Source: Bacteroidota bacterium (GTDB taxonomy: Bacteria > Bacteroidota > Bacteroidia > Chitinophagales > S012-47). From it: a stretch of DNA of 46,829 bases. Positions 6-32,205 of the stretch are shown here, piece after piece. Both the position numbers and the translations under genes were made by a program. Numbering within the stretch: position 1 is the first letter of the stretch; each line of letters begins with the position of its first letter. The stretch lies in NCBI GenBank assembly GCA_024276745.1, contig JAJRWN010000093.1:1-46829 (forward strand), given 5' to 3'. A model generated the notes under the pieces. That model was not told the DNA's origin, ran no database searches, and saw only the letters and a program-made list of their open reading frames with translations.

Positions 6-28
6 CTAAGCTATCCGTACTAGCTTAG
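6..28 (-). terminator. Hairpin overlapping the small-ORF stop (possible terminator)
   Basis: CTAAGCTA-tccgtac-TAGCTTAG perfect 8-bp inverted repeat; any U-tail cannot be judged at the window edge. Confidence 0.35.
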
Positions 29-141
29 TCACTCCTTTGGCCGGGTTCATTATTTTGTTTCTTTTTACCCATAAACAAACCTGCCAGGAATGCGGCTAAT
101 GCGCTGATAATCACAATCAGGAAGAATTTCTTGTTTCTCAT
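25..141 (-). CDS. Small 38-aa single-pass membrane protein (MRNKKFFLIVIISALAAFLAGLFMGKKKQNNEPGQRSD), below the ORF-track cutoff
   Basis: Hand-translated ATG(141) to TAA(25). Basic N-terminus, about 19 hydrophobic residues, then a basic stop-transfer segment. TACCTTTG -7 element at 159-166 upstream and a hairpin over the stop. Confidence 0.65.
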   Translation of the reverse strand: MRNKKFFLIVIISALAAFLAGLFMGKKKQNNEPGQRSD

Positions 142-269: not shown

Positions 270-1283
270 TTACAATTTCTGAAACTCAAATTGTGGATTG
301 CCTTTATTGCCATTCTGGTCGTAGAAATCGATGAAATGGAGTTTATAATAAAAGCCTTCATGGTCGCGGACAATATAAATTTTATCCGGATTCACGGCAT
401 ACTGGCCTAAATCAAAAGAATATTTTTTCCAATCGTAGCCAATCAGGTTTCTATCATCGGAGAATTGAAATTGATTGATAGCATTAAAATCCAGAGAAGC
501 AAAAGCAATGGAAGAATCGGCTGCTGCTTCTACCTTCCAGGGATTTAGCAACACACCGGTAACAAGATAAGGGATTGTATCGCCACTGACATTGAATATG
601 CGCAGGTATTGGGTAAAGACAATGTCCCAGCTAGTTTTTGGTGGTTCTATTTGTGCGATATCTCCCCCATTTTTAAAACTGAAGAAACTAAAATTATAGC
701 TGGTATCAATAGCCGGAATCTGCATACTGTCTTCGTTGGCATTATCCATATCGGCCCAGTGCAGGGTATAGTTTCCATTTTGATAATTTTCTATCCTGAT
801 TTTTTTAAAACCAATGGGTAATCCGGTGGTTTTTAATCCAAGATTCAGGATAAAAACATGATTAGTCAGCAGCGGTTGAGGGCCACTTAGATCGGCCCAG
901 GCCGATAAGGCTGTTGAATCAAGATTACCATTCTGTGCATCCCACCAAAAATGCATGCCGCTGGTATCTATTGGTGTATAAAAATCAATCGGTCCGGCAT
1001 CGGCAGCAAACATGGCTTTAGATGAATTGAGGATGATATGATGACCGCCATTAATACCATTCTCAAAGCCCAGATCCCAGTCCATTTTAAGGTTCTGACC
1101 TGACACCGATCCATTACTAAAATCGAAATATACCTGATATTTATAGTTTGATTCCATGGAGACATCAGCTTCTTTAATTTCGCCCCTTTGATGGGGTTTC
1201 AATGGAATTTCAGGTTTCAAACAAGAAGAAAATATCGCAGGCAGGATAAGAATAAAAGCATATTTCCGGGCTATGTTTTTCAT
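270..1283 (-). CDS. HmuY-family heme-binding lipoprotein with two tandem HmuY-like domains
   Basis: Lipobox-like FSSC; WDLGF and WDIVFTQY motifs; IGYDWK; C-terminal YIVRDHEGFYYKLHFIDFYDQNGNKGNPQFEFQKL typical of HmuY; directly downstream of a TonB receptor. Confidence 0.85.
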   Translation of the reverse strand: MKNIARKYAFILILPAIFSSCLKPEIPLKPHQRGEIKEADVSMESNYKYQVYFDFSNGSVSGQNLKMDWDLGFENGINGGHHIILNSSKAMFAADAGPIDFYTPIDTSGMHFWWDAQNGNLDSTALSAWADLSGPQPLLTNHVFILNLGLKTTGLPIGFKKIRIENYQNGNYTLHWADMDNANEDSMQIPAIDTSYNFSFFSFKNGGDIAQIEPPKTSWDIVFTQYLRIFNVSGDTIPYLVTGVLLNPWKVEAAADSSIAFASLDFNAINQFQFSDDRNLIGYDWKKYSFDLGQYAVNPDKIYIVRDHEGFYYKLHFIDFYDQNGNKGNPQFEFQKL

Positions 1284-1285
1284 CG

Positions 1286-3517
1286 CTATAGTTGAATTTT
1301 AAGTTTGGCAAAAACGGTTCTTCCCCATGCCATGGGTACCGATCCACCAGCCGATGAATGTGCTCCCCCACTCACCGAAGCTTGTACATCTTTCACATCA
1401 AAGAGGTTTTTTACACCTGTACTCAGTTGTATCCGGTTTAGCCAAAAATTACGTGTGAAGGTGATATCTGCCGATTGAAAAGCGGCAATATAATTTTCGC
1501 GCAACACTTCATTTTCATCGATATAAAAACTCGGAGCTTTGCCGGTATATTTGTAATAAACAGCTACTTTGATTCCTGCCGCTTTTATATTATAAGTCAG
1601 GTCAAATAATAGTTCGGGGGTAGTGCTGACAGCCGGTGCACTGCTCGAATCGGTGATATCATTATAACGGCCAATCATTGCTCCTCCTATTTTTAGTTGC
1701 AAATCTTCGGTAATAAATGAAAAGGAAGCTTCGCCACCAATACTTCTGAAACGCCCGATATTCACATAGCTGTAAAGGCTTCCACCTTGTTGAGCCAGCG
1801 TAATCATATTAAATATATCGTTATAATAGGTGGAGAGTTCTGCCTTGTAAACATGCGTTTCATCTGCTCGTTTATAACTGAAAGCGAGATTGTAATTATT
1901 AGATTTTTCGGCTTGTAAATCCGGATTGCCATGAATATTATGATTGATATCGACAAAAAGGAAATTTAATTCTTTGAGAGAAGGTGCTCTGAAACCTCTG
2001 GCATAGGAAGCTCTTATCGTCAGGTCAGGGTTTATAGCCAGGCGGAGGTTTAAAGAGGGAATCAGCGGTGTACTATAGCCGGTATTATAAGCATATCTCA
2101 AACCCGGCCTGATAGTAAGAAGCTCTGTGGGAATAATTTCCAATGAGCCATAAGCGGCATAATCTCCAATGGCTTGTTTGCCATCTGCAATTCGTTTGCC
2201 TATTGCATATTCCTTGTTTAAGTCAAATCCTATTTCGTAATGAAGCTTGGTCTCGGGATTTGTGTTTATATAGCTGCCTCTGGCCATCAGCAAAGAAAAG
2301 AAGCTGCTATCCTGATCACCCGGATTGGCGGTAAGCACTTCATTCAGGGTAGTCAAATCTTTGAAATAAGTGTTTTTAATTCTGTTATACCGGTTATAAG
2401 CCATCAATAAATTAAACTTTCCATTATCGTTTAGTTTATACTCAATGCCGGCTTGATTATCGAATCGTTGGGTAAAATAGAAATCATCGAAAGCAGTTTC
2501 GTAATATGGTTTTCTGCGCCACCCACGATTGGTAATTAATTCTTTAAAATAGCGACTACTAAACAAAATATTAAGCTTTTCGCTCGTGAATGTATAATCC
2601 AGATTTCCGAAATATTGTTCTTTCGGTTTCCAGTCTTTATGCCTGGAAGTATCGACCAGTGACCAACCATCAAAAAAATTACGACCACCCGCGAGAGATA
2701 TTCTGTTTTGTTTATGCTGATAAGCGGTACCGGCATCAAAATTATATTGTCCGGCCGATTCATAATAACTATTAGCATAGGACGACCAGGTATTTTGCTG
2801 ACTTTTTTTAGTAATTAAATTAATGGTTCCTGCCAGGGCATTTGTTCCATAGTTTACACTCAAAGGGCCTTTTATAATTTCAACTCTCTCTATGTTATTT
2901 AGGTTAATCTGACTGATATCAATATTCCCATTAAGTCTTCCGATAAGCGGAACACCATCAATAAGAATTTTAACATTTTGCCCACTGACTCCTTCAATGC
3001 TTAATGAAGAACCAAGCAGGTTATCCTGAGATAAACGGATATTACTTTGATTATTTAGCAAATCTTTGAGTGTAGTGGCAGCACGAAGGTCAATTTCATC
3101 CCGGCCAATAATTTCTACCCGATGAACCGATTTTTCAGGGCTATCGGGATTATACTGGGCGGTGATTACCACATCAGCAATTTTATAGGCCTTTTCATGA
3201 AGTTTATAGGTTTTATGTTCATCCGCTTTCAATTTATCGTCAACACTTTCGAAACCGGTATAACTGATATGAACAGCAACCTTACCGGTGAAAGGTGCAA
3301 CAGCAACACCATTTTCACCGGTAAGGACTGTTTCTTGTGAAAAACCGGGATGATCCAGGCTTGTAAAAGTAACATGAGCATAAGCCAGGGGATAAGCATC
3401 CTCAGCCGATATTACCCTTACTTCGCTTTCGGCAAATAATACGCTCTTGGATAAAAAGAACAACAAGCATAAACCGAACTGAATCTTTTTCAATAAAACC
3501 TGATTAATAAAAGTCAT
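1286..3517 (-). CDS. TonB-dependent receptor, HmuR-like heme/iron receptor
   Basis: Plug motifs (ILIDGVP, IERVEIIKGP, YGTNALAGTINLIT); FRAP (GFRAPSLKEL) and NPDL motifs with His residues between them (HNIH); C-terminal barrel strand. Confidence 0.9.
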   Translation of the reverse strand: MTFINQVLLKKIQFGLCLLFFLSKSVLFAESEVRVISAEDAYPLAYAHVTFTSLDHPGFSQETVLTGENGVAVAPFTGKVAVHISYTGFESVDDKLKADEHKTYKLHEKAYKIADVVITAQYNPDSPEKSVHRVEIIGRDEIDLRAATTLKDLLNNQSNIRLSQDNLLGSSLSIEGVSGQNVKILIDGVPLIGRLNGNIDISQINLNNIERVEIIKGPLSVNYGTNALAGTINLITKKSQQNTWSSYANSYYESAGQYNFDAGTAYQHKQNRISLAGGRNFFDGWSLVDTSRHKDWKPKEQYFGNLDYTFTSEKLNILFSSRYFKELITNRGWRRKPYYETAFDDFYFTQRFDNQAGIEYKLNDNGKFNLLMAYNRYNRIKNTYFKDLTTLNEVLTANPGDQDSSFFSLLMARGSYINTNPETKLHYEIGFDLNKEYAIGKRIADGKQAIGDYAAYGSLEIIPTELLTIRPGLRYAYNTGYSTPLIPSLNLRLAINPDLTIRASYARGFRAPSLKELNFLFVDINHNIHGNPDLQAEKSNNYNLAFSYKRADETHVYKAELSTYYNDIFNMITLAQQGGSLYSYVNIGRFRSIGGEASFSFITEDLQLKIGGAMIGRYNDITDSSSAPAVSTTPELLFDLTYNIKAAGIKVAVYYKYTGKAPSFYIDENEVLRENYIAAFQSADITFTRNFWLNRIQLSTGVKNLFDVKDVQASVSGGAHSSAGGSVPMAWGRTVFAKLKIQL

Positions 3518-3532
3518 GATTATTCAAATGCT

Positions 3533-4783
3533 TTAGTTCAGCAGAATCTTTTTAGTGATGACTTGTTTTCCTGCTTTGATTTGCAAAAAGTATATGCCTG
3601 CTGCATAGTTATTTCTTTGAAACGGAATAACATTCATACCTTTTGTAAGGTCAAACTGATTTTGATACATGATTCTCCCATCCATAGCAATCAGCTGCAT
3701 ACTTGCAGATTGAGCTTGTGAAAGCATCAACATAATAGTGGCATTCTGATTTACCGGATTAGGATACACATCCAGGGCATTGATATTTTGGTTAAAGGAA
3801 TTAATTCCGGTAGGGTTGACCACTGTAACATCAAAATCAAAATCACCACTGCTCGAACCGCTGAAGCTCGTAAATTCAATCCGGTAAATCACGCTATCGC
3901 GACCAAGCACCCAATATACAAGTGAATCTTCAATTTCATATTGAAAGGTTTGCATATTAAAGGTTTTCCAATCGTAGCCAATGGTAGCAATATCGGTTTG
4001 CATCGGATAATCGGAATAATTTACTGTGTTCACATCCACACCGGAAGCTTCGGCAACACTTACTTCAAAATTGGCTAATACTCCGGTAACAGGATAATAA
4101 ACTCCCGGAGCAACTTCGGCCGAGTATTTTGTAAATGTTAAATCCCAGTCATCAGCCGGTGGTTCAGGATCAACAACCTGCATATTGCGCAAGTCATAAT
4201 AGAAAAAACTTTTTCCTGCATAATCAGATTTTATCAATTGGAAAGTAGTATCGTTGCTTCCGTTAAGATTGGCCATGCGGATGGTATAGGTGTTGCCAAC
4301 AAGTAAACTTTTAATCCAGATTTTCTTATAAGTGCCATCAACAAGTTTAATCACAAATATTTTCTTACCGAAAAGATTACCTCCCCCGGTATAGTAGCCC
4401 CAACCATAATCAGGATGTCCGGTATTGCCATAATTAAAAGCAGATTCTTCCCAGGTGGTATCCCGGTCATAAATAGCCATCATACCCGAAGTATCAATAC
4501 TGTTCCAAGCAAGGGTATCAGCATTCAGAAGATCGAATAATTGAGCTCCTGCTCCTGAGTTTACCCGGATAGAAGCCGAAAAAGCATTGTCAGAGATTTG
4601 GATATCCCAACTATCTCGTGACTGGAATGTACTCACATTATTTTTCAGGCTATACCATACCTGATTAGCATATCCACTGCCCATCGAAACAGTAACGCTT
4701 GTTTGGGATTTTACCTGGCTCCCTGCCAATAAGAATAAACAAGTGTAAATTATTTTTTTCATTAGCTTATGTTTTAAATTCAT
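3533..4783 (-). CDS. T9SS type-A sorting-domain protein with tandem HmuY-like domains (candidate secreted hemophore); alternative start at 4762
   Basis: SPI signal ending before Gln; WDIQI, WDLTFTKY and IGYDWK motifs shared with the 270..1283 protein; CTD VYPNP...GIYFLQI...TKKILLN. Confidence 0.8.
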   Translation of the reverse strand: MNLKHKLMKKIIYTCLFLLAGSQVKSQTSVTVSMGSGYANQVWYSLKNNVSTFQSRDSWDIQISDNAFSASIRVNSGAGAQLFDLLNADTLAWNSIDTSGMMAIYDRDTTWEESAFNYGNTGHPDYGWGYYTGGGNLFGKKIFVIKLVDGTYKKIWIKSLLVGNTYTIRMANLNGSNDTTFQLIKSDYAGKSFFYYDLRNMQVVDPEPPADDWDLTFTKYSAEVAPGVYYPVTGVLANFEVSVAEASGVDVNTVNYSDYPMQTDIATIGYDWKTFNMQTFQYEIEDSLVYWVLGRDSVIYRIEFTSFSGSSSGDFDFDVTVVNPTGINSFNQNINALDVYPNPVNQNATIMLMLSQAQSASMQLIAMDGRIMYQNQFDLTKGMNVIPFQRNNYAAGIYFLQIKAGKQVITKKILLN

Positions 4784-4799: not shown

Positions 4800-4829
4800 C
4801 AAAGTTACAGGTGTATTATACCGGTCAAA
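4800..4829 (-). promoter_or_regulatory. Promoter of the hmuY-like operon (-7 TAACTTTG; candidate -33 TTTG)
   Basis: Plus-strand CAAAGTTA at 4800-4807 and CAAA at 4826-4829. Confidence 0.6.
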
Positions 4830-4950
4830 TACCCGCAAAAGGATAATAAATACCCAATGAGGGATACACCTATGGTGATTATTATCACCTCTGCAGTTAA
4901 CAGATATCATTATATTTATACTGTTTTTCAAGTCCTTATAAGCATATAAT

Positions 4951-5940
4951 ATGACAAACAGAAAAATAGACCTGGAAACAGGTCTGATAAAAAGTACCTT
5001 AATCGGGATAAAACATAATTTAGCAATAGCTTTTGATACAAAGCCTGCAGAAGCCGGAAAACTTCTGCAAAGTAATTTGATAGATGAAAACCTTGGCTTA
5101 TTGAATATCGGCCCTACTGAAAAGGCTATCAATGCTTTAGATTTAATAATACATCCTCAATTAGTAATATTACTTTTTACTTTACAAGGAAAAGTCAAAA
5201 TTCAGTTTCACGGAATAGATGCACCTGTTTTTTTGGAAAGGGGGAACAGTATTTTTATTTCTCATCCATACGCACCACTCAATGCCAAAATGAATATTAG
5301 TTGTCAAACTGAGGCAATAGTATTATTGACAACTATCGAACGAATGCACCATTTCTTTAATGCAAATCTTGACATGAGCACGATAACCCGGGAAGAACTA
5401 AGCCGGTATTACGATCCTAAAAAATTGTATATGTTAAAATCTATTCCGGGAAGTCTTAGTATTCCATTACACCAGATAATACAATATAATCTTGATGTTC
5501 ATTTTAAAAAAATGTATTTAAACGGAAAGATTCTGGAAATTTTTTCAATCTATTTTAGTCATGCCGCCATGGATGATGAAGCCGAATTAGACTGTCCTTT
5601 TCTGGATAATCCTGATGATATAAAATGCATCCGGAAAGCAAAGCAAATTTTATTGGATAATATGACTGATCCTCCAACTATAGCACAATTGGCAAAACAA
5701 TCAGGTATTAATGAATTTAAACTTAAAAACGGATTCAAAGACATTTATGGCAACACAATTTACGCTTATCTGAACGAGCACAGAATGCAACAAGCAATAT
5801 TAATGCTTGAACAAAAAAATCACACTATAAATGATATTGCATATTCTATCGGTTATTCAAAACCAAGTAATTTTATTGCTTCTTTTAAGAAGAAATATGG
5901 TATTACCCCAAAAAAGTATGAACTTGAACTGCGAGATTAG
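4951..5940 (+). CDS. AraC-family transcriptional regulator (PchR-like), divergent from the hmuY-like operon
   Basis: C-terminal double HTH: PPTIAQLAKQSGINEFKLKNGFKDIYG...INDIAYSIGYSKPSNFIASFKKKYGITPK. Confidence 0.93.
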   Translation: MTNRKIDLETGLIKSTLIGIKHNLAIAFDTKPAEAGKLLQSNLIDENLGLLNIGPTEKAINALDLIIHPQLVILLFTLQGKVKIQFHGIDAPVFLERGNSIFISHPYAPLNAKMNISCQTEAIVLLTTIERMHHFFNANLDMSTITREELSRYYDPKKLYMLKSIPGSLSIPLHQIIQYNLDVHFKKMYLNGKILEIFSIYFSHAAMDDEAELDCPFLDNPDDIKCIRKAKQILLDNMTDPPTIAQLAKQSGINEFKLKNGFKDIYGNTIYAYLNEHRMQQAILMLEQKNHTINDIAYSIGYSKPSNFIASFKKKYGITPKKYELELRD

Positions 5941-6102: not shown

Positions 6103-6180
6103 GGGTGCTTAGCTCAGTTGGTTTAGAGCATCTGCCTTACAAGCAGGGGGTCGTAGGTTCGAATCCTACAGTGCCCACCA
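6103..6180 (+). tRNA. tRNA-Val(TAC)
   Basis: Acceptor GGGTGCT/AGTGCCC, anticodon arm TCTGC-CT TAC AA-GCAGG, GTTCGAATC T-loop, encoded CCA. Confidence 0.97.
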
Positions 6181-6445: not shown

Positions 6446-7012
6446 TCAACAAAGTGTCAATGTATTGGTATCAGTATGTTCAAACACTTTGCCGTAAATA
6501 TCAAGCATTGTCGTTTCAGCATAAAATAATCGACCATTCCCTACTTCAACTTGATGCTTAAAAGAATTTGTTCGTGCTTTTTGCTGCATAAACGGAGATT
6601 GAAGGATACCCCAGCTCTGATTATCAATACTTGCAGATACTTTAATAATTAACTGACCTTCGGTATTTTTCTGCTCCCGGTAGTTTGCTCCCGCAAGCAC
6701 ACAAACGGCACGAGGGATAACAATACTTTGCATAATGATACTTTCTTTCGCATCCCAAAGCCAATAGCCCGTTTGATCATGAAAGATTTGTTGATCAGAT
6801 TTTCGTTGTACAATTTGCCGGTAATGTACTACCGACAATATTTGAGATTCAGCATTGGTAACATCACCGGCTGCGGTAAATGTGATGGTTTCGAAATAAG
6901 GATTTTCTTCAGAACCATCAGGTTCCGGAGCTACATCAAGTCCTTTATCTCCTGTCCAGGTACCAATTAGCGAAGCCAAGGGACCGTAATCAATTTTTGT
7001 TTGTTCTTGCAT
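6446..7012 (-). CDS. Nitrobindin/THAP4-like (DUF1794, FABP-like) heme-binding beta-barrel protein
   Basis: N-terminal GPLASLIGTWTG, YFETITF, HDQTGYWLW and C-terminal FEHTDTNTL. Confidence 0.8.
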   Translation of the reverse strand: MQEQTKIDYGPLASLIGTWTGDKGLDVAPEPDGSEENPYFETITFTAAGDVTNAESQILSVVHYRQIVQRKSDQQIFHDQTGYWLWDAKESIIMQSIVIPRAVCVLAGANYREQKNTEGQLIIKVSASIDNQSWGILQSPFMQQKARTNSFKHQVEVGNGRLFYAETTMLDIYGKVFEHTDTNTLTLC

Positions 7013-7177
7013 ATGCTTTTTACTAGATTTTATAAAATCCTAAAATACAAAAACAGGATGATTTTAATCACTGAAAATATTCCGCTATGCAAGCAGAAGT
7101 GAATCACTTAAACCGGCTTGGCGGAAGGAAGAAAAAAAATACCCGCAACTATCGAGTCATTACCTTCAAAGCTTCGT

Positions 7178-8302
7178 TTAGCGGTAAGTTCTGAAAAAAA
7201 AGAATCGGTCATTTAGGAGCAGGTTTACCCCATACGTGAAATCCAATCGCTGAGAAGGAATATCGAAATAGGCTTCGAAATAAATTTTAGCCTTGAGATA
7301 TGAGCTTAAATGTTTTAAAAGTTCGATTCGTCCGGTAATCAATTTCCGGTTGGGAATAGTAAAGGATGAATCAAGTTCAGAAATACTTTCTAATAAAAAT
7401 TCACCGTAAGGTGCAATAAACTGATGCCCTTGCTGATAAGCAATTTTCAGATTAATCCACTGAGCAGAAGCATTTACTCCCGCATACCACGCATAGCCTT
7501 TTTCAAAAGGCAATGCATTGTTTTGGCCAGGAGGAGGCATGGATAGCGCTTGATATATCAGATATTGACCATCTACACCAATATCAAATGCTTTTGAAGG
7601 ATTTGGTTTAAATGAAAACCCCAGGCCTGTCATACCATTAAACACGGTCAGTACTCCATCAGGTGAACGATCAATTTGTCCTCCTTTATGGGTAATAAGC
7701 AATTGCAATGGAATATGAATCGAACTGTGTTTCCCTAAATCATGTTCCCACCGGCTGCTGCTTCCGGCAATAATTTCTTCTTGAAAAGGATCTCCTTTTT
7801 GAATAAACCTTCTCCACTCCAACCAATTATCTGATCGAAAATGAGCTATATCCAATTCGCTTTGCAAGCCATATTCTACCGGATGCTGATAAAACCAATC
7901 TCTGCGATACAATGATTCTGATAAATCATGGAGTTTATCATTATTCAAATGCCCCATGCGCAGAAGAAATCCCGGTTTTGCTTCATACGTAATCGAAAAT
8001 AAAGGCAAGAATTCGCTAATACCTTTGCTACCATCATACATCAGCAGATGAAAACCTGCATCAATCGTAGTTTTTGGATCAGGTTTATATTCAATTTGAG
8101 GTTGTATAAAAAATCCAATACCTGTCCATCCTTCTGATAAGGGTGAGAAATATTCATTGTTTTTTAGAAAATTATTAGCTTTTACTAGCAAATAAACAGG
8201 TCTTTTTAGTGTATCTTCATTCAGCTTGGAAGCATAAAACTCCTGTGCATAAACAGATAAGCTGCATATACAAAACACCAACAGTATTTTTATACCTTTC
8301 AT
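7178..8302 (-). CDS. Conserved hypothetical outer-membrane beta-barrel protein (start probably MKGIK at 8302)
   Basis: SPI signal (SLSVYA-Q), amphipathic aromatic-rich strands, NNEYF and HKGGQID segments seen in Bacteroidota hypotheticals. Confidence 0.6.
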   Translation of the reverse strand: MKGIKILLVFCICSLSVYAQEFYASKLNEDTLKRPVYLLVKANNFLKNNEYFSPLSEGWTGIGFFIQPQIEYKPDPKTTIDAGFHLLMYDGSKGISEFLPLFSITYEAKPGFLLRMGHLNNDKLHDLSESLYRRDWFYQHPVEYGLQSELDIAHFRSDNWLEWRRFIQKGDPFQEEIIAGSSSRWEHDLGKHSSIHIPLQLLITHKGGQIDRSPDGVLTVFNGMTGLGFSFKPNPSKAFDIGVDGQYLIYQALSMPPPGQNNALPFEKGYAWYAGVNASAQWINLKIAYQQGHQFIAPYGEFLLESISELDSSFTIPNRKLITGRIELLKHLSSYLKAKIYFEAYFDIPSQRLDFTYGVNLLLNDRFFFFRTYR

Positions 8303-8398
8303 AATCTCTGTTCGCAAAAATACTAATAGCATTCATTAATTAATTGTTGAGCAATGATTGACGGGGCTGTATTATATTTGCATACAAATAAAAGTTGT

Positions 8399-9766
8399 AT
8401 GGAATCACTGCAAAAATATTTTGAGAAACATAAAGAAAGATTTCTGAAGGAACTCATTGAATGGCTCAGCATTCCTTCGGTGAGTGCCGACCAAAAATTT
8501 AAAGACGATGTTTTTGAAGCTGCAGAATTTGCTCAAAAAAAGCTTTTGGCAGCCGGTGTTGATCGTGCCGAAGTTTGTCCAACAAATGGTTATCCCATTG
8601 TTTACGCTGAAAAAATTATAGATAAAAATTTACCGACTGTATTAATTTACGGTCATTATGATGTTCAACCTGCCGATCCTTACGAATTATGGGATTCACC
8701 TCCATTTGACCCTATTATAAAAGATGAGATTATCTATGCACGTGGTTCAAGCGATGACAAAGGCCAGATATATATGCATATAAAAGCATTGGAATGTATG
8801 AATGCCGGAGGAAGTATTCCATGCAATTTAAAATTTATGATAGAAGGAGAAGAAGAAGTAGGCTCTGAAAATTTGGGAACCTTTATTAGCAATAATAAAA
8901 AAAAGCTGGCCGCTGATGTAGTACTAATCTCAGATACCAGTATGTTGTCAAATGATATCCCATCCATTACCACCGGATTGCGCGGATTAAGCTATATGCA
9001 AGTAGAAATAACCGGGCCTAATCGTGATTTGCATAGTGGTGTATATGGAGGCAGTGTAGCAAATCCTGTAAATGTTCTATGCAACATGATTGCTTCACTT
9101 GTTGATGGCAATGGCCGCATAACAATACCCGGATTTTATGATCATGTAAAGGAAGTATCTGCTGCAGAAAGAGCAGAGATGGCAAAAGCACCTTTTGATT
9201 TGGATGATTACAAACGTGAACTGGGTGTACAAGCGGTTTCAGGTGAAGCAGGATATTCTTCTGTTGAACGTACTTCCATCAGGCCATCTCTTGATGTAAA
9301 TGGTATTTGGGGAGGTTATACTGCCGAAGGTGCCAAAACGGTATTACCCTCAAAAGCTTATGCCAAAATCAGTATGAGATTGGTACCTGAGCAAAATAGT
9401 GAACGGATTGCACAGTTATTTACCGATCATATTCATAATATAGCACCGGAAACCGTTCAGGTTAAGGTGATTTCCATGCACGGAGGAGAGGCGGTTGTTA
9501 CCCCTATCGATTCGATAGCATATAAAGCGGCCAGTATGGCTTTCAAGCAAACTTTTGGCAAAGCTCCTGTTCCTGTACGTTCGGGCGGAAGTATCCCTAT
9601 TGTAGCTTTGTTTGAAAAAGAACTGGGACTGAAAACCATCTTAATGGGCTTCGGTCTCGATAGCGATAATATTCATTCGCCTAATGAACATTTTGGCGTA
9701 TTTAATTTTTATAAAGGTATCGAAACCATACCCTGGTTTTATAAGTTTTATGCAGAAATGAAGTAA
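8399..9766 (+). CDS. M20-family metallo-dipeptidase (start revised to the ATG at 8399)
   Basis: YGHYDVQP, ARGSSDDKG, EGEEEVGS, DLHSG and HSPNE motifs; the TATATTTG -7 element at 8373-8380 argues against the longer 8354 start. Confidence 0.93.
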   Translation: MESLQKYFEKHKERFLKELIEWLSIPSVSADQKFKDDVFEAAEFAQKKLLAAGVDRAEVCPTNGYPIVYAEKIIDKNLPTVLIYGHYDVQPADPYELWDSPPFDPIIKDEIIYARGSSDDKGQIYMHIKALECMNAGGSIPCNLKFMIEGEEEVGSENLGTFISNNKKKLAADVVLISDTSMLSNDIPSITTGLRGLSYMQVEITGPNRDLHSGVYGGSVANPVNVLCNMIASLVDGNGRITIPGFYDHVKEVSAAERAEMAKAPFDLDDYKRELGVQAVSGEAGYSSVERTSIRPSLDVNGIWGGYTAEGAKTVLPSKAYAKISMRLVPEQNSERIAQLFTDHIHNIAPETVQVKVISMHGGEAVVTPIDSIAYKAASMAFKQTFGKAPVPVRSGGSIPIVALFEKELGLKTILMGFGLDSDNIHSPNEHFGVFNFYKGIETIPWFYKFYAEMK

Positions 9767-9769: not shown

Positions 9770-10315
9770 TCAGGGATAAATAAAACGACCCGAAATCATA
9801 AATTCTTCCTCTTTACCTATGCTTGTTTTTTCTTTGGTTTTGATGCGGTAATATTGTTTAGGATAATATTTAAGCACGCTTATGCTACGGTAAACCAAAT
9901 TCTCTTTTACAATATTTATTTCAAGACTAATAATTTTATTTCTTCTACTGATAATTTTCATAGATTTTACCGGAATATTATCATTTGTTGTGGTAAACAA
10001 AACCTTAACTCTTCCGTGATTTACATACTGCGAATCTACCCGATAATAGTTCAAACGGGAAGTATTGCTGATATCAGCCTCAATAAAAGCTTGCAATTCT
10101 TTTTTCCAATCGGGCTTTTCGATGAGCACCGAATCGCTGACTTGACCAACCGAACCTGTTTTTAATAATGGTATCTGTTCATATTCCAAACTGTCAATTT
10201 GATTTTCAATAAACTTCGTAATCGAAAAATTAAGTGTTTCCGGTTTATCAGATGATACCTTATAGTGGCAAGCACTAACAGATACAAAAAACAGCATTAA
10301 AAAATAAAACCTCAT
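9770..10315 (-). CDS. Hypothetical lipoprotein
   Basis: Lipobox VSAC; starts 2 nt after the gpmI stop. Confidence 0.65.
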   Translation of the reverse strand: MRFYFLMLFFVSVSACHYKVSSDKPETLNFSITKFIENQIDSLEYEQIPLLKTGSVGQVSDSVLIEKPDWKKELQAFIEADISNTSRLNYYRVDSQYVNHGRVKVLFTTTNDNIPVKSMKIISRRNKIISLEINIVKENLVYRSISVLKYYPKQYYRIKTKEKTSIGKEEEFMISGRFIYP

Positions 10316-10317
10316 CG

Positions 10318-11841
10318 TTAAAAAAGACTTTTCCCGGTCATTTCAGGGGCTTGTTCAATGTTCATCATCTTCAGCAATGTTGGAGCTACATCTGATAATA
10401 CACCCTTTTGCAGTTCAGGTTTTAAAGTTTGATCAATCAAAATCATTGGAACAGGATTCAAGGAATGAGCCGTATTGGGGCTTCCGTCAGGATTGATTAA
10501 ATAATCTGAATTCCCATGATCAGCAAGAATGATAATCGCATAATCTTTTTCCAGTGCTGCCGGTATGATCTCCTGCAAACAATGATCTACTGTTTCGCAG
10601 GCTTTCATGGCAGCCTTAAACACACCGGTATGCCCGACCATATCGGCATTGGCAAAGTTCAGACATATAAAGTCCGGTTCATTGGTTTTTATTTCTTTCA
10701 AAAGCGCATCTTTTACCTGAAAAGCACTCATTTCAGGTTGCAAATCATAAGTTGCTACTTTAGGTGAAGGTATCATGACCCTTTTTTCACCCTTGAAAGG
10801 TTTTTCTCTGCCTCCCGAAAAGAAAAAAGTAACATGAGGATATTTTTCCGTTTCGGCAATTCTGAGCTGTGTATATCCAAGATTTGATAAATATTCACCG
10901 ATTGTCATCGCTACATGTTCGTTGTCGTAAACAATATGCATGTTTTTGAATTGTTCATCATAATTAGTCATTATCACGGTATACAGATTTAGTTTCTTCA
11001 TATTGAATTCCGGAAAATCGTGTTGTGTCAATGCATCAATGATTTGTCTTGGACGGTCGGTTCTGAAATTAAAAAAGAAAATCACATCGTCTGCTTTAAC
11101 GGAGCCAAGGGCTTTGCCCGAATCATCAACCTTAATCATGGGTTGCAGAAATTCATCTGTGATACCGGCATCGTAAGCATCCTGAATGCCAGCCGTAAAA
11201 TCTTTTACCGGCCGGCCATTTCCTCTTACCATCATACGGTAAGCAGTAGAAGTTCGCTCCCAGCGTTTGTCCCTGTCCATGGCATAGTATCGCCCGACAA
11301 CAGAAGCAAGTTGTCCATGAGTATTTTCCAAATAGCTTTCTAATTGTTTGATAAACTGCAAACCACTTTTAGGATCGGTATCGCGACCATCTGTAAAAGC
11401 ATGTATAAAAAATTGTTGAATACCGGCCTTTTCTGCAATCTCAATCAATGCTTTCAAATGCAGTATATGCGAATGTACACCACCGTCAGAAACCAAACCC
11501 ATAAAGTGAACCGGTTTATGATTCTTCAATGCATAATCGAATGCGTCTATTACCACCGGATTGTGTTCCAACTGATGATTTTCCACTTCCCGGTTGATTC
11601 TTAGCAATTCCTGGTAAACAATGCGACCGGCCCCTAAATTAAGATGACCCACCTCTGAATTTCCCATTTGCCCCTTTGGTAATCCAACATTTTCGCCATC
11701 GGTTAGTAGTTCTGTATGCGGATATTTTTTTAACAAGGAATCAATATAAGGCGTATTGGCATTATAAATTGCATCGCTTTGATCTTCCTTTCCATGGCCC
11801 CAGCCATCGAGTATCATCAAAAAAGATTTTTTATTTTTCAT
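10318..11841 (-). CDS. gpmI: 2,3-bisphosphoglycerate-independent phosphoglycerate mutase
   Basis: ILDGWG, MGNSEVGH, GRYYAMDRD, AETEKYPHVTFFF, DMVGHTG and ADHGN motifs. Confidence 0.97.
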   Translation of the reverse strand: MKNKKSFLMILDGWGHGKEDQSDAIYNANTPYIDSLLKKYPHTELLTDGENVGLPKGQMGNSEVGHLNLGAGRIVYQELLRINREVENHQLEHNPVVIDAFDYALKNHKPVHFMGLVSDGGVHSHILHLKALIEIAEKAGIQQFFIHAFTDGRDTDPKSGLQFIKQLESYLENTHGQLASVVGRYYAMDRDKRWERTSTAYRMMVRGNGRPVKDFTAGIQDAYDAGITDEFLQPMIKVDDSGKALGSVKADDVIFFFNFRTDRPRQIIDALTQHDFPEFNMKKLNLYTVIMTNYDEQFKNMHIVYDNEHVAMTIGEYLSNLGYTQLRIAETEKYPHVTFFFSGGREKPFKGEKRVMIPSPKVATYDLQPEMSAFQVKDALLKEIKTNEPDFICLNFANADMVGHTGVFKAAMKACETVDHCLQEIIPAALEKDYAIIILADHGNSDYLINPDGSPNTAHSLNPVPMILIDQTLKPELQKGVLSDVAPTLLKMMNIEQAPEMTGKSLF

Positions 11842-11945
11842 TTTACAAAATTAGGTTTATGCGCGATAATACTTAAATTTGGTCTTTTCAATCTAATAGT
11901 TTGCTTTTGGCATAATATTCGTTATCTGTTATCAAACTGAATTGT

Positions 11946-12347
11946 ATGAAAACTATACTCAAACGAGTCATTTTTAGTTCATTTCTTCTTATCGGTAATT
12001 CATTATTTGGCCAACAAATACCGGCCTATATGAATCAAATAAAAGCAGCCATTCAAGCCGGAAATGCTACGGAACTGGCTCGTTATTTTGATAGTCAGGT
12101 TGAATTAACCATTCTGGATAACGAAAATGGATATAGCAAAGTACAAGCAGTGGAAGTTGTAAAAAACTTCTTCAATAAACATCCGGTCACCACATTCAGG
12201 ATTATGCATCATAGTACTACCGGAGGCAATGCAGAATATGCCATTGGAACTTTGCAAACGACAAAAGGAACATTCAGAACCTACATTTTATTAAAGAATG
12301 TTGACAAACAAATGCTTATACAGCAATTAAAATTTACCGAAGACTAA
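11946..12347 (+). CDS. DUF4783 family exported protein
   Basis: Signal peptide; GNATELARYFD...YSKVQA...FFNKHP...YAIGTL pattern; usual position upstream of nadC. Confidence 0.8.
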   Translation: MKTILKRVIFSSFLLIGNSLFGQQIPAYMNQIKAAIQAGNATELARYFDSQVELTILDNENGYSKVQAVEVVKNFFNKHPVTTFRIMHHSTTGGNAEYAIGTLQTTKGTFRTYILLKNVDKQMLIQQLKFTED

Positions 12348-12354
12348 AATTTAT

Positions 12355-13203
12355 ATGACTTTTAATTCTAAAGCTTTTATTAAAGCCGCATTGGCAGAAG
12401 ATATCGGTCAGGGCGATTTTACTTCATTGGCATGCATCGATGCTGAAGCACAGGGTACTGCTAAAATGCTAGCAAAAGATACCGGAATCATTGCCGGTAT
12501 CGAACTGGCCGCTATGATTTATAAACAAGTAGATCCCGATATATCTTTCGAGCCTCTTGCTCATGATGGTAAACATGTACGATATGGTAACATTATCTTC
12601 ATGGTAAGCGGTAAACAACAATCATTATTAATGGCCGAACGACTTGTATTAAATTTTATGCAAAGAATGAGTGGTATAGCCACAATGGCCAATTTAATGG
12701 TTAAAACTGTTGAAGATTATGATGTAAGCATTTTGGATACAAGAAAAACCACACCCACTTTAAGATGGTTTGAAAAATGGGCTGCACGTATAGGAGGTGC
12801 ACAAAACCACCGGATGGGTTTATACGATATGGTGATGATAAAAGATAACCATATTGACTATGCCGGTGGCATAGACATTGCCATAAAAAAAGTGCGTGAA
12901 TATTTGAAAAAAAATAAACTGCAGCTGAAAATTGAAATCGAAGCCCGAAGCATTTCCGATGTAAAAAGAATTGTACGCATCGGTTCGGTAGATCGAATCA
13001 TGCTTGATAATATGGACCCGGACCAAATAAAAAGTTGTGTTAAACTTATTAATGGTAAATTTGAAACAGAAGCTTCCGGAAATATTATCATCGAAAATGT
13101 AAAAGAATATGCGGCCAGTGGGGTAAATTATATTTCAAGCGGTTTTATTACACATTCGGCCGGTATTCTCGACCTGAGTATTAAAGCGGTAAAATATGGC
13201 TGA
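12355..13203 (+). CDS. nadC: Nicotinate-nucleotide pyrophosphorylase (carboxylating)
   Basis: EDIGQGD, LDTRKTTP, NHRMGLYD, IKDNH, IMLDN and EASG motifs. Confidence 0.97.
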   Translation: MTFNSKAFIKAALAEDIGQGDFTSLACIDAEAQGTAKMLAKDTGIIAGIELAAMIYKQVDPDISFEPLAHDGKHVRYGNIIFMVSGKQQSLLMAERLVLNFMQRMSGIATMANLMVKTVEDYDVSILDTRKTTPTLRWFEKWAARIGGAQNHRMGLYDMVMIKDNHIDYAGGIDIAIKKVREYLKKNKLQLKIEIEARSISDVKRIVRIGSVDRIMLDNMDPDQIKSCVKLINGKFETEASGNIIIENVKEYAASGVNYISSGFITHSAGILDLSIKAVKYG

Positions 13204-13302
13204 CCCTTTCATGCTTTCCAACATTATTCAATCTTTACTATATTCTTCCATTTTATTATTGCATAAATAGCATGAGAAGTACAATTTTTTAATTTTGCTC
13301 TA

Positions 13303-15216
13303 ATGCAGCTCTCACAATTCCGACATTATATCATTCTTCTAAAACGTTTAGGAATTGTAATGGGCTTATTTACCCTATGCCGGATTTTATTTTTTCTGTT
13401 TAACTATCATTTATTTTCCGATATTACTTTTTTGGAATTCCTGAAAGCAATGGTCTTTGGCTGGCGATTCGACCTCTCGGCCATATTTTATATCAATACC
13501 TTATTTATACTGCTGCATATCGTGCCCAATCCCTGGCGCGATAGAAAAACCTATCAATCGGTATTGAAATTTTTATTTTATGCTATCAACGGCTCTGCCC
13601 TCTTTTTCGAATCAAGCGATTTTATTTATTATGAATTTGCTCAACAACGAACTTCCTCTCATATACTTGGGCTGAAAAACGATATCCTGGGACTTATACC
13701 CCAATTTATATATGATTTCTGGTATGTCCTGTTGATTTGTGCAGCGATAGTTTATCTGATTAATAAACTTTACCGGATAACAGCGACATCAACAGTAATC
13801 GGACCTGCAAAGCAAAACTATTTTATCCAATCCCTGCTGGCCCTGCTTATTGCCGGCATTTGGCTGGTAGCCGGCAGAGGTGGTTTTCAACTAAAACCTA
13901 TTTCACCCATTACGGCTACCAAATATTTTAAGGTAAAAGATGTCTCTCTGATTACCAACACAAGCTTCACGATCATCTATTCTTTATTTCACCGGGAATT
14001 GGAAATACCTCAATATTTCCGGGAAGATCAATTAACTGATGAATTTAATCCCTTGCATCAGTTTGCCCATTCCAATGAATATAGCTGGGCAGATACCCTT
14101 AGAAAAACAGCACATCCGAATATTGTGATTTTGATTTTAGAAAGTTTTTCAAAAGAATATACCGGCTACTTTAATCATGGCAAGGGATATACACCGTTTC
14201 TCGATAGTTTGATGCAACAAAGCATGGTATTTACCCAAGCTTATGCCAATGGAAAACATAGTATTGATGTCTTACCGGCATTAAGCATCGGTCTGCCTGC
14301 TTTAATGAACGATGCTTATATTTCTTCAATCTATTCCACCAACCGGATAGAAGGTCTGGGCGATCAGCTAAAAAGCATTGGATATACTAGCTATTTTATG
14401 CATGGAGGAAATAACGGTACCATGACTTTCGATTATTATGCCGATGCCATTGGATTAGACCATTACCTGGGCAGAAACGAATATAATAATGATCAAGATT
14501 TTGATGGTAACTGGGGTATTTATGATGAGCCGTTTCTTCAATATGCCGCCCATGTGCTTGATACTAGCTCTACTCCTTTTTGCAGCCTGATATTTACCTT
14601 ATCTTCACATCATCCGTTTTCGATTCCCAAAAAATATAAGAATCGCTTTAAAGAAGGTCCTTTGCCCATTATAAAATCGGTAAGATATGCAGATTTTGCA
14701 TTAAAAAAATTCTTCCAAACGGCATCGAAAATGAAATGGTTTGATAATACTTTATTTCTGATAACCCCCGATCATACAGGGCCGTTGATGCGCAATGAAA
14801 ATAAAAACCGGGTAGGAAATTACCGGATTCCCATCATTGCCTATTTGCCCGGATCCTCACTAAAAGGCACCATCAATTATACCGTTCAGCAAACCGATAT
14901 CTACAACACAGTGCTTGAGTTCAGTGGTTATAAAGCCAAGTATCTAAGCTTCGGAAACTCCCTGTTCGATTCTACGGCCTACCGTTTCAGCGTGAGCCAA
15001 ATGGACGATATTTACCAGATAATTCACAATGATTACGCCTTACAATATGACGGGGAACATGTTATTGGGTTTTTCAATTGTGTTGAAGATCCTACACTAA
15101 GCCATAATCTGATGGAAAAACCAATGCCTGTTAAAACCGAAATGCTCCGTAAACTGGAAGCAATCATTCAAACTTACGATGAAATGCTGGTTAAGAATAA
15201 ATACTTTCCCGGATGA
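13303..15216 (+). CDS. LTA synthase/sulfatase-like membrane phosphoglycerol transferase
   Basis: Five N-terminal TM segments, RGG motif, ILILESF, TLSSHHPF, YAD and PDH motifs. Confidence 0.88.
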   Translation: MQLSQFRHYIILLKRLGIVMGLFTLCRILFFLFNYHLFSDITFLEFLKAMVFGWRFDLSAIFYINTLFILLHIVPNPWRDRKTYQSVLKFLFYAINGSALFFESSDFIYYEFAQQRTSSHILGLKNDILGLIPQFIYDFWYVLLICAAIVYLINKLYRITATSTVIGPAKQNYFIQSLLALLIAGIWLVAGRGGFQLKPISPITATKYFKVKDVSLITNTSFTIIYSLFHRELEIPQYFREDQLTDEFNPLHQFAHSNEYSWADTLRKTAHPNIVILILESFSKEYTGYFNHGKGYTPFLDSLMQQSMVFTQAYANGKHSIDVLPALSIGLPALMNDAYISSIYSTNRIEGLGDQLKSIGYTSYFMHGGNNGTMTFDYYADAIGLDHYLGRNEYNNDQDFDGNWGIYDEPFLQYAAHVLDTSSTPFCSLIFTLSSHHPFSIPKKYKNRFKEGPLPIIKSVRYADFALKKFFQTASKMKWFDNTLFLITPDHTGPLMRNENKNRVGNYRIPIIAYLPGSSLKGTINYTVQQTDIYNTVLEFSGYKAKYLSFGNSLFDSTAYRFSVSQMDDIYQIIHNDYALQYDGEHVIGFFNCVEDPTLSHNLMEKPMPVKTEMLRKLEAIIQTYDEMLVKNKYFPG

Positions 15217-24284: not shown

Positions 24285-25367
24285 ATGCTGATTCATTTTA
24301 TACAAATTGTCTTTTGGAACCTGGCTACTCTTCCTATGGCTTTTTTGCCCACACTAACACCTCATGTCACCCAACTCACTGATAATCTGTTTAACGATGA
24401 GCGCCCAGTGATTGCAAATCATACTATTTTTTGGCAACAAGCTGATGGAGTCATTATTTCCTACGATATAAACCGGGCTTATGCCCATGAATTCATACAA
24501 ATTCCTGCCTCTTCTTATTTTGCGATTGATGCCGAAACCATGGTATGGCAACAAAAAGAAAACAAACAAGATTTTATTTATTTTGCTTCTACTGAAAATG
24601 CCGGATTATACCGGATTGCTGCCGGTGGCGATTTGGTACAAAACCCTCAAATCAAACGGCAGAGGCTTACCTGGTGTGTAAGCCATAATGATGAATATAT
24701 CCTTTGCCTGCTCAATCTGAAAAATCAAAAAATCAGACGTATTCACTTAAACCAAAGCGATCAGCCCGCCACTTGTCTTGGCTCCAGATTTCTTGCCTAC
24801 AGTGCAATCGATCAGGGGCAACATCAGATAAAAATCATGGATATTCGCAACGGTAATATAAAAACTATCAGTAATCCCGGTTTTCGCAATGGCAAACCCT
24901 TCTGTCAAGGTATGCGTGTAAGCTGGGAAGCTTATGACGGGCACGACTATGAAATTTTCTGTTATGACGATTATACCGGTTGTACCTACCGGGTAACCGA
25001 CAATGAATTTGATGATTTGAACCCCCGTTTAAGCCATGATATGCTTAGTTGGATGCAGGTAAATAAGCACGAAAACAATATTGCATTGATGGAATTAGAA
25101 AACATGACATTAAAATTCCTGAAAGTAAATAAGCTTCAAGGAAAATATTTTACAATGGATGATGACTTTGTAGTATGGGTGAATGAATCCGGCAATAATA
25201 AGCGGTTGCAAATCTATGATATAACGGCTCAATCTTACCGTCAATTAGCCAATTACGATTGCTCTAATGCACATCCTTATTTACTCAATCACCTTATTGT
25301 ATGGCAAGGTTTCGATGGTACAGACGATGAAATATTTTGTTGCCGGCTTGAAACAACATCAGACTAA
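24285..25367 (+). CDS. Stand-alone beta-propeller repeat protein (TolB-like)
   Basis: About 38-40-aa repeats with P-x-I...V-W...DG-x-D-x-EIF (WEAYDGHDYEIF, WQGFDGTDDEIF, LTDN/VTDN). Confidence 0.65.
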   Translation: MLIHFIQIVFWNLATLPMAFLPTLTPHVTQLTDNLFNDERPVIANHTIFWQQADGVIISYDINRAYAHEFIQIPASSYFAIDAETMVWQQKENKQDFIYFASTENAGLYRIAAGGDLVQNPQIKRQRLTWCVSHNDEYILCLLNLKNQKIRRIHLNQSDQPATCLGSRFLAYSAIDQGQHQIKIMDIRNGNIKTISNPGFRNGKPFCQGMRVSWEAYDGHDYEIFCYDDYTGCTYRVTDNEFDDLNPRLSHDMLSWMQVNKHENNIALMELENMTLKFLKVNKLQGKYFTMDDDFVVWVNESGNNKRLQIYDITAQSYRQLANYDCSNAHPYLLNHLIVWQGFDGTDDEIFCCRLETTSD

Positions 25368-27791: not shown

Positions 27792-27807
27792 AAAAATAAA
27801 TTTGGTT

Positions 27808-29325
27808 TCATATTATCTTCTGCTTCGATTTTGGCAGTAAAATCCGGATGATTGTACCTTTACCGGGGCTTGAGCTTTCTACAAAAATTTTGCCAGAATG
27901 ATATTCTCTTACAATTCTTTTTGTCAATGATAAACCCAGTCCCCAACCTCTTTGCTTGGTGCTAAATCCAGGCTGGAATATGGTTTTAAATTTAGACTTA
28001 CTAATTCCTTTCCCGGTATCCTGAACATCGATATAAATATGATTGCCTTTAATACCGGCAATTACAGTAATACTGCCTTTCCCTGACATGGCATCCAGAC
28101 TGTTTTTAATTAAATTTTCGAGTACCCACATAAATAGCGGAGGACTTACCGCAGCAGGCAACTGATTGCCATCGGGCAAATGGAGTGATAATTCAATATT
28201 ATTCGAAATTCTTTTGCTGAAATAGGCAATACTTTCCTTAATAAGCAATGATAGATTTTGGGTTTCAAGAATAGGTGCTGATCCGATTTTTGAAAAACGA
28301 TCGGTAATGACCTCCAATCGTAACATATCTTTTGCCATTTCATTAACCCATTCCTCATTCACCTGATGGTCTTTCATGATTTCCATCCAACCAGCTAGAG
28401 AAGATATAGGGGTTCCCAGTTGATGCGCTGTTTCTTTGGCCATGCCTACCCATACCTGATTTTGCTCGATTTTCCGGGAAGTACTGAAAGCATAGTAAGC
28501 AATTAAGAGAAAAAGACCAATAATGGCAAACTGTACAATTGGATAGAAACGGACCTGTTTTAATAAATAAGAATTTCTATAATAGGCATAGTTTACATTT
28601 CCATCGCCCAGGTCAATCTCGATTGGGTTGTTTTCAGATTCCATGCTCGAAAGCATATTTTCGAGATAATCCTTTTGTTTTACTTTCGCTGAATCAATAT
28701 TTCCCCAGGAAAGCACTTTTTTATTTTTATCGGTAAATATGACCGGCACCGATGCTGAATTAATCACAATTTCAGAAATAAATGAATTAATCAATTCATC
28801 GAGTGTGGAACGAAGGTCGGTGAAGAGTCGTGAATCACGATAGTATATTTCATTTTTCCAACCTTTGCTTTCTACCTCTATCGGTTCGTATTGTGTGAAT
28901 TGCTTTTTCAATTTTTCGGTTAAGGTATCGGCATCGTTCAGCCATTGTTCATCTACATTTCTGGATGCAATGATATGGGCTTTATCATCGGTTAAAATAA
29001 CCGGTACGGTTTCATTATCCTGTACCACGGCAAAGGCAAAATAATCAATTTCTTCGCTTTCTATGAGTCTGCGGGTAGCATTGGCCCAAAGGATTACCTT
29101 ATTTTTTTCTTCTCTTCTGAGCCGGTCGAACAATTGGGAGGTGATACGCAATAAGCGGGCTTTATTTTGAGTGGCTTCGGCCCAAATCCGTACTTTTTGT
29201 TTTTCTTCAGAACCTATCCGTTTAGCCAGCAAGCTGGTGTACCAAAGCGAACCACCAACTATGACGGCTGCCACAGCAATCAGCCAAAGTTTCCAGCGAT
29301 ATTTTCTTGTATAATTATCAGCCAT
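27808..29325 (-). CDS. Orphan membrane sensor histidine kinase (PorY-like family)
   Basis: Two TM segments; H-box KETAHQLGTP; N-box ENLIKNSLDA; DTGKG; FQPGFSTK; GWGLGL. Confidence 0.9.
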   Translation of the reverse strand: MADNYTRKYRWKLWLIAVAAVIVGGSLWYTSLLAKRIGSEEKQKVRIWAEATQNKARLLRITSQLFDRLRREEKNKVILWANATRRLIESEEIDYFAFAVVQDNETVPVILTDDKAHIIASRNVDEQWLNDADTLTEKLKKQFTQYEPIEVESKGWKNEIYYRDSRLFTDLRSTLDELINSFISEIVINSASVPVIFTDKNKKVLSWGNIDSAKVKQKDYLENMLSSMESENNPIEIDLGDGNVNYAYYRNSYLLKQVRFYPIVQFAIIGLFLLIAYYAFSTSRKIEQNQVWVGMAKETAHQLGTPISSLAGWMEIMKDHQVNEEWVNEMAKDMLRLEVITDRFSKIGSAPILETQNLSLLIKESIAYFSKRISNNIELSLHLPDGNQLPAAVSPPLFMWVLENLIKNSLDAMSGKGSITVIAGIKGNHIYIDVQDTGKGISKSKFKTIFQPGFSTKQRGWGLGLSLTKRIVREYHSGKIFVESSSPGKGTIIRILLPKSKQKII

Positions 29326-32131: not shown

Positions 32132-32205
32132 TGGAGCTAGTGGGAGTCGAACCCACGACCTCTTGACTGCCAGTCAAGCACTCTAGCCAACTGAGCTATA
32201 GCCCC
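32132..32205 (-). tRNA. tRNA-Ala(GGC)
   Basis: Reverse complement GGGGCTATAGCTCAGTTGGCTAGAGTG CTTGA-CT GGC AG-TCAAG AGGTCGTGGGTTCGACTCCCACTAGCTCCA; G3:U70 Ala identity pair; followed by CCT, so CCA is not fully encoded. Confidence 0.97.

Follow-up and report, generated by a model that had tools for sequence, protein, structure and literature searches.

The window analysed here is the whole of contig JAJRWN010000093.1, 46,829 nucleotides from a Bacteroidota bacterium of the order Chitinophagales (assembly GCA_024276745.1, 2.3 Mb in 164 contigs and 90% complete). Positions 270-4783 hold three co-oriented, tightly packed genes on the minus strand, designated A, B and C: A encodes a double HmuY-like protein with the signals for type IX secretion system (T9SS) export, B a TonB-dependent transporter and C a double HmuY-like lipoprotein. 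We consider that they probably form, in environmental Bacteroidota, a conserved module for heme acquisition at the outer membrane, one that parallels the HmuY-HmuR pair of Porphyromonas gingivalis and the HfpY-HfpR pair of Flavobacterium psychrophilum. The triad itself is real and conserved, and not one genome's accident; that its ligand is heme we infer, as we do the location of C at the surface, what becomes of A once exported and which way transfer runs.

A and C are members of the HmuY family by Pfam score and by fold. The Pfam HmuY profile (PF14064, cut-off 27 bits) matches each of them in two stretches, with 33.6 bits for A and 67.4 bits for C. AlphaFold models of A and C, each built on a 40-sequence alignment (predicted local distance difference test, pLDDT, 88.3 and 88.7, respectively), were compared by VIA-align with five reference structures of the family: HmuY (3h8t), PinO (6r2h), BfrB (8b6a), BF2707 (4gbs) and Tfo (6eu8). 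Root-mean-square deviations are 2.2-5.1 Å over 127-157 residues; Z scores are 11.6-12.8 for A over all five structures (12.6-12.8 against HmuY, PinO and BfrB) and 12.5-14.2 for C, the values against HmuY itself being 12.6 for A and 13.9 for C. A preliminary description of this locus had made its case depend on the presence of a HmuY fold in the protein with the T9SS C-terminal domain (CTD), and that fold is what the model of A displays. The top ten Foldseek matches of the C model are all HmuY-family structures. With the whole A model, Foldseek returned mostly spurious matches to multi-domain beta-proteins (viral fusion proteins, for example), which we have set aside; the HmuY matches of A are clear by VIA-align. 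Searching solved structures by sequence yields a weak match of C to BfrB alone and no match for A.

A and C are also paralogues (26% identity over ~325 residues, E 8e-22), as the preliminary description had proposed on the strength of shared motifs, every one of which is found in the two translations (WDIVFTQY, YLVTGVL and IGYDWK in C; those of A are given in Table 1). Its further proposal, that each protein holds two HmuY-like units, is upheld by Pfam scans of the separate halves and by comparison of N-terminal with C-terminal halves in hhalign. Scanned alone, both halves of C pass the cut-off (Table 1), the N-terminal half of A falls just below it (26.7 bits) and the C-terminal half of A gives no match. 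Set against each other in hhalign, N- and C-terminal halves align with 90.8% probability in the A family (E 1.2e-6) and 91.4% in the C family (E 8.9e-7). Like halves of the two families are far closer to each other than the halves within one protein (N with N, E 2.1e-22; C with C, E 1.4e-32), which places the internal duplication before the A/C split. To judge by their sequences, the N-terminal units are the more divergent ones. Since the VIA-align ranges span both units, the assignment of two folds to each protein rests on the profiles, with weak support from the language-model Atlas, in which the nearest cluster of the N-terminal unit of C is the HmuY family (0.91) and those of the C-terminal unit of A are HmuY at a score of 0.83, a lead only. 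With two units each, neither protein has the single-domain lipoprotein architecture of the characterised HmuY members, and in place of a lipobox A bears a type I signal peptide together with a CTD.

The targeting signals of A and C are those that the preliminary description had read from them. The scan that it proposed for the CTD of A passes both cut-offs (PF18962, 42.9 bits against 27; TIGR04183, 49.3 bits against 23), the CTD profile matches all 66 A-family open reading frames (ORFs) in related loci, and in the model the domain resembles the CTDs of mirolase (Z 10.2) and PorZ (Z 9.3). Translation of A probably starts at Met8 (position 4762), where 92% of 99 aligned family members also begin, to give a protein of 409 residues. 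The Gln that follows its signal peptide is kept in 89% of the family; Bacteroidota tend to expose an N-terminal Gln after cleavage by signal peptidase I, and the Gln of A fits that tendency. The genome also encodes T9SS machinery: SprA_N is matched with 514.7 bits in a 2429-residue frame and GldM with 117.6 bits, and the PorU model finds partial matches only, below its cut-off, in the assembly. In C the lipobox reads AIFSSC; its Cys21 is kept by every one of 117 family members, with x-K-E-E as the consensus that follows. In the protein collection, at least 258 members are counted for the A family and at least 1052 for the C family; nearly all are from environmental Bacteroidota, and they bear either no name or the labels "T9SS type A sorting domain-containing protein" and "HmuY family protein". 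The nearest relatives of C come from uncultured Chitinophagales metagenome-assembled genomes (MAGs), with 80% and 58% identity.

The Plug and barrel domains of B are matched by Pfam with 79.8 and 105.1 bits. As had been claimed for it, the receptor bears a FRAP box (residues 509-512) and an NPDL box (531-534); His526 stands between them. Within this loop none of the 39 orthologues departs from R510, P512, F521, D523, N525, H526 or L534. In PMC9331221 (cited here from excerpts, as are PMC9618737 and PMC12106395 below) a His flanked by FRAP and NxxL boxes is described as the signature of heme/hemoglobin receptors, and B carries that signature.

C is predicted to dock on B. Residues 111-743 of B and 22-337 of C, each with a 39-row alignment drawn from the same loci, co-fold with an interface score (ipSAE) of 0.62 (0.61-0.63 in three runs), whereas the best of three controls reaches 0.01; the runs have no less than 84% of their contacts in common, and the pLDDT of the partner is 85 or more. 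In calibration, 116 of 157 solved complexes and 2 of 215 mismatched pairs came up to this mark, a guide that is only rough here, custom alignments having been used. On the B side the predicted interface takes in residues 333-343 (RKPYYETAFDD), 385-399 and the His526 loop (522-527, with 522-525 and 527 in contact); on the C side it takes in the linker (22-31), 150-155, Y239-L240, the loop after IGYDWK (292-299) and 318-327 (IDFYDQNGNK). Predicted contacts fall among the most conserved positions of both proteins: P337, Y338, D344, D387, L388, L391, D523 and N525 in B, and Y239, L240, Y321, G325 and K327 in C.

Table 1. Features of the A-B-C locus and its upstream region (window positions; aa, amino acids)
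Feature	Position	Strand	Remarks
Gene A	3533..4783	-	ORF of 416 aa: signal peptide, two HmuY-like units, type-A T9SS CTD
A, N-terminal HmuY-like unit	4214..4705	-	aa 27-190; contains GHPDYGWG
A, C-terminal HmuY-like unit	3809..4213	-	aa 191-325; WDLTFTKY, YPVTGVL, IGYDWK
A, type-A T9SS C-terminal sorting domain	3536..3769	-	aa 339-416; PF18962, TIGR04183
Gene B	1286..3517	-	743 aa; TonB-dependent transporter, heme-receptor type
B, FRAP-His526-NPDL loop	1916..1993	-	FRAP, aa 509-512; NPDL, aa 531-534; loop sequence GFRAPSLKELNFLFVDINHNIHGNPDL
Gene C	270..1283	-	337 aa; lipoprotein, two HmuY-like units
C, lipobox cysteine	1221..1223	-	Cys21 in AIFSSC
C, N-terminal HmuY-like unit	708..1178	-	aa 36-192; Pfam HmuY 30.5 bits alone
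C, C-terminal HmuY-like unit	273..707	-	aa 193-337; predicted receptor-docking motif FIDFYDQNGNKG; Pfam HmuY 46.6 bits alone
AraC-family regulator	4951..5940	+	329 aa, divergent from A; HTH_18 70 bits
Control region upstream of A	4800..4889	-	palindrome, direct repeats and box
Palindrome (GTGAT-N4-ATCAC)	4874-4889		GGTGATAATAATCACC
Direct repeats	4848-4855 and 4827-4834		GGGTATTT; 21 bp apart
Box	4800-4807		TAACTTTG

A scan of genome contigs turned up 392 stretches coding for a relative of C, spread over MAGs of the Chitinophagales, Flavobacteriales, Cytophagales and Bacteroidales; the figures that follow are for the best 80, chosen by likeness to C. A receptor gene is present in 77 of these 80 loci and a CTD-bearing A in 66, the common order being A, receptor, C on one strand; 12 of the 14 loci without A end upstream at a contig end. 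In the closest relative (L055) the order is AraC gene, A, B and C, followed by housekeeping genes. Counted from the side of A, the full-length gene occurs in 21 of 401 sampled genomes of the phylum, that of the window included; around the other 20, receptor and C both lie within 10 kb in 12 cases, the receptor only in 5 and neither in 3 (one of these at a contig end). Two genomes, G331 and G327 (loci L042 and L043, from the same taxonomic order, and listed as 100% complete), have a full-length A beside a more distant receptor (276-299 bits).

Several observations weigh against reading the locus as a heme-acquisition module. HmuY binds heme through His134 and His166, and Tfo through two Met residues (PMC9331221); no conserved His/His or Met/Met pair is found in 99 A-family or 117 C-family sequences, in which the conserved columns are Tyr, one Met and scattered His. 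The best NCBIfam matches of B, all of them partial, are to receptors for heme/hemoglobin/transferrin, B12 and hemin. B stays far below the cut-offs of the heme-receptor models (126.1 bits for TIGR01786, cut-off 323.75; 115.4 for TIGR01785, cut-off 316.85) and scores on a par with them against the B12-receptor model TIGR01779 (123.3 bits, cut-off 599.7). The passing co-fold of B with C may partly reflect likeness to solved transporter-lipoprotein pairs. The 90%-complete assembly has no match to HemS, FecCD, CbiX or PepSY_TM_like_2. G331 and G327 have no C-family gene anywhere in either complete genome. Finally, deletion of the T9SS-secreted hmuY from Flavobacterium columnare is reported to cause no defect of growth or virulence (PMC9618737).

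The missing axial pair does not decide membership in the HmuY family, since ligands vary within it and are also absent from HfpY, which, in the excerpts of PMC9331221, has no His/Met ligands, binds heme at a 1:1 ratio, its Soret band lying at 398 nm, and is needed, together with HfpR, for growth on heme. Other conserved residues offer themselves. A supplement to the same paper (F9) places the second ligand 5-6 residues after a conserved Trp; by profile alignments with Tfo and HmuY, partial and too short for exact mapping of ligands, that Trp corresponds to the W of IGYDWK in the C-terminal units. Candidate columns in C are Tyr47, Tyr239, Tyr283, Tyr321 and Met91 (91-100% conserved), and in A Tyr131 (100%) and Tyr38, Tyr44, Tyr220 and Tyr230 (92-94%). 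In the N-terminal unit of A, the Trp of GWG is followed seven residues on by a His in 89 of 99 members; the other ten, the clade to which the window's A belongs, have lost that His, and all ten have one in GHP(D/N)YGWG, just before the Trp. That a His is kept near the GWG loop in every A member suggests a working ligand site.

The cargo is indicated by the company that the triad keeps in relatives. Genes for HemS/ChuX (265 bits), a periplasmic binding protein, a FecCD permease and an ATP-binding cassette (ABC) ATPase accompany it in 7-9 of the 20 loci found by way of A and in 4 of the 80. These four are the classical set for import and handling of heme, and the linkage of HemS/ChuX with a FecCD-type ABC transporter in relatives thus indicates heme. 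Loci of this kind include L036 (positions 10167-13978), L109, L112, L076 and L129; in L129 (Taibaiella soli) and L076 the four genes lie between A and the receptor. In 23 of the 80 loci (and also in L034, positions 8035-9591) A and the receptor are separated by a gene for a CbiX-type chelatase-like protein, and in 16 of the 23 a gene for a PepSY_TM-like membrane protein comes next; a plausible role for this pair may be the removal of iron from porphyrin in the periplasm. On such indirect evidence we infer that heme is the best-supported cargo.

It is improbable, in our estimate, that the cargo is instead some other tetrapyrrole or metal complex (protoporphyrin, a corrinoid or a breakdown product of chlorophyll), the HmuY-like folds serving as general porphyrin binders. 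The lack of a conserved canonical ligand pair favours such a reading, as do the chelatase-like gene and the near-equal scores of B against B12- and heme-receptor models; one of the three HmuY homologues of Bacteroides fragilis, moreover, reportedly binds no heme. Set against these are the linkage of the heme-specific HemS/ChuX in several relatives and the invariance of the FRAP-His-NxxL loop; the chelatase-like gene also fits heme use through iron removal, and the window contains no cobalamin riboswitch or other regulatory RNA, two tRNAs being its only RNA genes.

With heme retained as the probable cargo, there is more than one way in which A, C and B might divide the work. A strict relay in two tiers, in which released A captures heme at a distance and must pass it on to C, which alone would feed the receptor, is possible and, we think, doubtful. 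The association of A and C around one receptor in 66 of the 80 loci speaks for it, and so would the cover that C is predicted to form over the receptor loops, including that of His526, which would hinder direct access of A. Also in its favour, the docking motif of C, FIDFYxxxGxKG, is replaced at its counterpart in A by a different conserved motif, FTGFGGSSxGN, and because of that difference A probably does not take the seat of C on B. A strict relay does not accommodate G331 and G327, which have A and a related receptor and lack C. Since these two complete genomes make do without C, A may also deliver directly and the relay would not be obligatory.

Their example can be taken further, to a scheme in which A and C bind independently of each other, serve different sources or concentration ranges and each feed the receptor directly; we would entertain this tentatively, as something possible that we do not expect. 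It agrees with the report that the F. psychrophilum receptor still works, more slowly, without its HmuY-like partner (PMC9331221), and with the difference in ligand-loop residues, a His close to GWG in A's N-terminal unit as against Met91 and the Tyr columns of C. However, the predicted receptor seat of C uses a motif that A lacks, and genes so tightly paired as these two would seem to be mutually dependent.

The module that we favour, with A and C both serving B, would operate as follows. The operon would be switched on, probably under iron or heme limitation, by way of the AraC-type regulator and the sites upstream of A. A would be exported by Sec and then, via its type-A CTD, by the T9SS, and would act as a scavenging arm outside the cell or on its surface. 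C, once lipidated, would be a surface lipoprotein seated on the extracellular loops of B, next to the invariant His526 loop, to which its C-terminal unit would hand the ligand, with TonB-dependent import to follow. A would deliver to C, as in a relay, or else, with C open or absent, to B. The most elaborate form of this proposal is an extracellular relay built from one duplicated fold, running from a T9SS-released double-HmuY protein to a docked double-HmuY lipoprotein and on to the His loop of the transporter, with the two units of each protein providing an internal transfer step; we judge that rather unlikely.

Comparison with the Hmu system of P. gingivalis shows both likeness and difference. 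The HmuY fold is common to both, as is a lipoprotein that adjoins a TonB-dependent receptor with a His-containing NPDL-type loop. HmuY of P. gingivalis, in contrast, is a single unit of ~190 residues with the His134/His166 pair, whereas A and C have two units each and lack that pair; and the present locus has an additional, T9SS-exported paralogue and is without the hmuSTUV that complete the hmuYRSTUV cluster. The preliminary description had remarked that no hmuSTUV or ABC genes follow the locus, and a domain scan of the window indeed finds no hmuS (CobN-like), hmuTUV or ABC genes downstream of the receptor; the contig end falls 269 bases past gene C. A short ORF of ~38 codons with a hydrophobic stretch, read by eye from the sequence, lies in that interval (28-141, minus strand). 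Some of the hmu clusters of Porphyromonas are marked with T9SS-sorting-domain and PepSY genes in a figure legend of PMC12106395.

F. psychrophilum offers another parallel: an aerobic member of the Bacteroidota with a receptor and a HmuY-like lipoprotein whose lipobox resembles that of C and, in the excerpts of PMC9331221, without hmuSTUV. HfpY, like A and C, does without the His/Met ligands. It differs from them in being a single unit of ~200 residues; a DoxX-family gene separates the receptor gene from hfpY, and a T9SS-exported paralogue is not described in the excerpts of PMC9331221. F. columnare supplies the parallel to A: its HmuY (C6N29_01035) combines a HmuY domain with a Por_Secre_tail and is reported to be secreted by the T9SS (PMC9618737); it was not among the close relatives retrieved in our homology searches. 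The premise of novelty in the preliminary description thus stands in part: characterised HmuY of P. gingivalis is a single-unit lipoprotein, but a T9SS-secreted HmuY was already on record (PMC9618737). A HmuY with a T9SS tail is known already. Among the features that set the present module apart are the doubling of the units and the pairing of differently targeted paralogues; in a full-text search of the literature, neither tandem HmuY units nor a T9SS/lipoprotein HmuY pair flanking a single receptor turned up.

Beyond the HmuY family, the likeness to the Isd and Has systems is one of function only, and hypothetical here. In the Isd/NEAT systems of Gram-positive bacteria, secreted and anchored proteins built of one heme-binding domain, sometimes in tandem, pass heme to a membrane transporter; in the Has system the secreted hemophore HasA docks on the TonB-dependent receptor HasR. 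The folds of both are unrelated to those of A and C, and their secretion routes differ. For the predicted seat of C on B a comparison can be made with BtuB-BtuG and SusC-SusD of Bacteroides, in which a surface lipoprotein lies on the extracellular face of a TonB-dependent transporter; the lipoprotein folds (beta-propeller and TPR-like, respectively) and the cargos are different.

Work on HmuY-type heme capture has so far concerned host-associated anaerobes and two fish pathogens almost exclusively, and a single-domain protein in every case. The A-B-C locus is a different and widespread build, in which the binder is doubled internally and doubled again as a secreted and an anchored protein around one receptor. 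If the A/C pair passes heme, it would make a tractable Gram-negative model of the division of labour between a diffusible hemophore and its receptor-bound partner, and free-living Bacteroidota would be shown to scavenge heme in soil and water. A relay, if true, would be a Gram-negative counterpart of the NEAT-domain relays, common in lineages of soil and water with no auxotrophy for heme. Direct targets for mutagenesis are the surface predicted for docking and those Tyr, His and Met columns that are conserved.

The region upstream of A (Table 1) carries a palindrome, a pair of direct repeats and a box, all of which are kept in alignment with L054 and L055; a TAnnTTTG upstream of A may be a Bacteroidota -7 box. 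An AraC-family gene adjoins A in the closest relatives (L054, L055 and L034) as it does in the window, and this regulator and the conserved repeats probably control the operon. Scans for sigma-70 promoters and for terminators did no better than on shuffled sequences.

Two genes away from the locus is a gene for a nitrobindin/THAP4-like heme-binding beta-barrel protein (6446-7012, minus strand; PF08768, 73.4 bits; NF040572, 107 bits). Upstream of it, at 7058-7071, stands GTGATTAAAATCAT, the same GTGAT-N4-ATCAY palindrome as upstream of A. These two are the only sites of the kind in the 46.8 kb (three matches, a palindromic site being counted on both strands, with 0.25 expected), which hints at a common regulator for A and the nitrobindin-like gene. 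Since that gene is absent from the closest relative, L055, we place it outside the conserved module.

Other features of the window can be noted in passing. The 384-residue product of 7178-8332 (minus strand) has no Pfam match and only a partial match to NCBIfam LpxZ (147 bits, cut-off 460). A second TonB-dependent transporter (810 residues) adjoins a histidine-kinase-like protein (505 residues) at 25359-29325 on the minus strand and is unrelated to the HmuY locus. Of the two tRNA genes, one (6103-6177, plus strand) is placed between those for the AraC regulator and the nitrobindin-like protein, and the second occupies 32132-32205.

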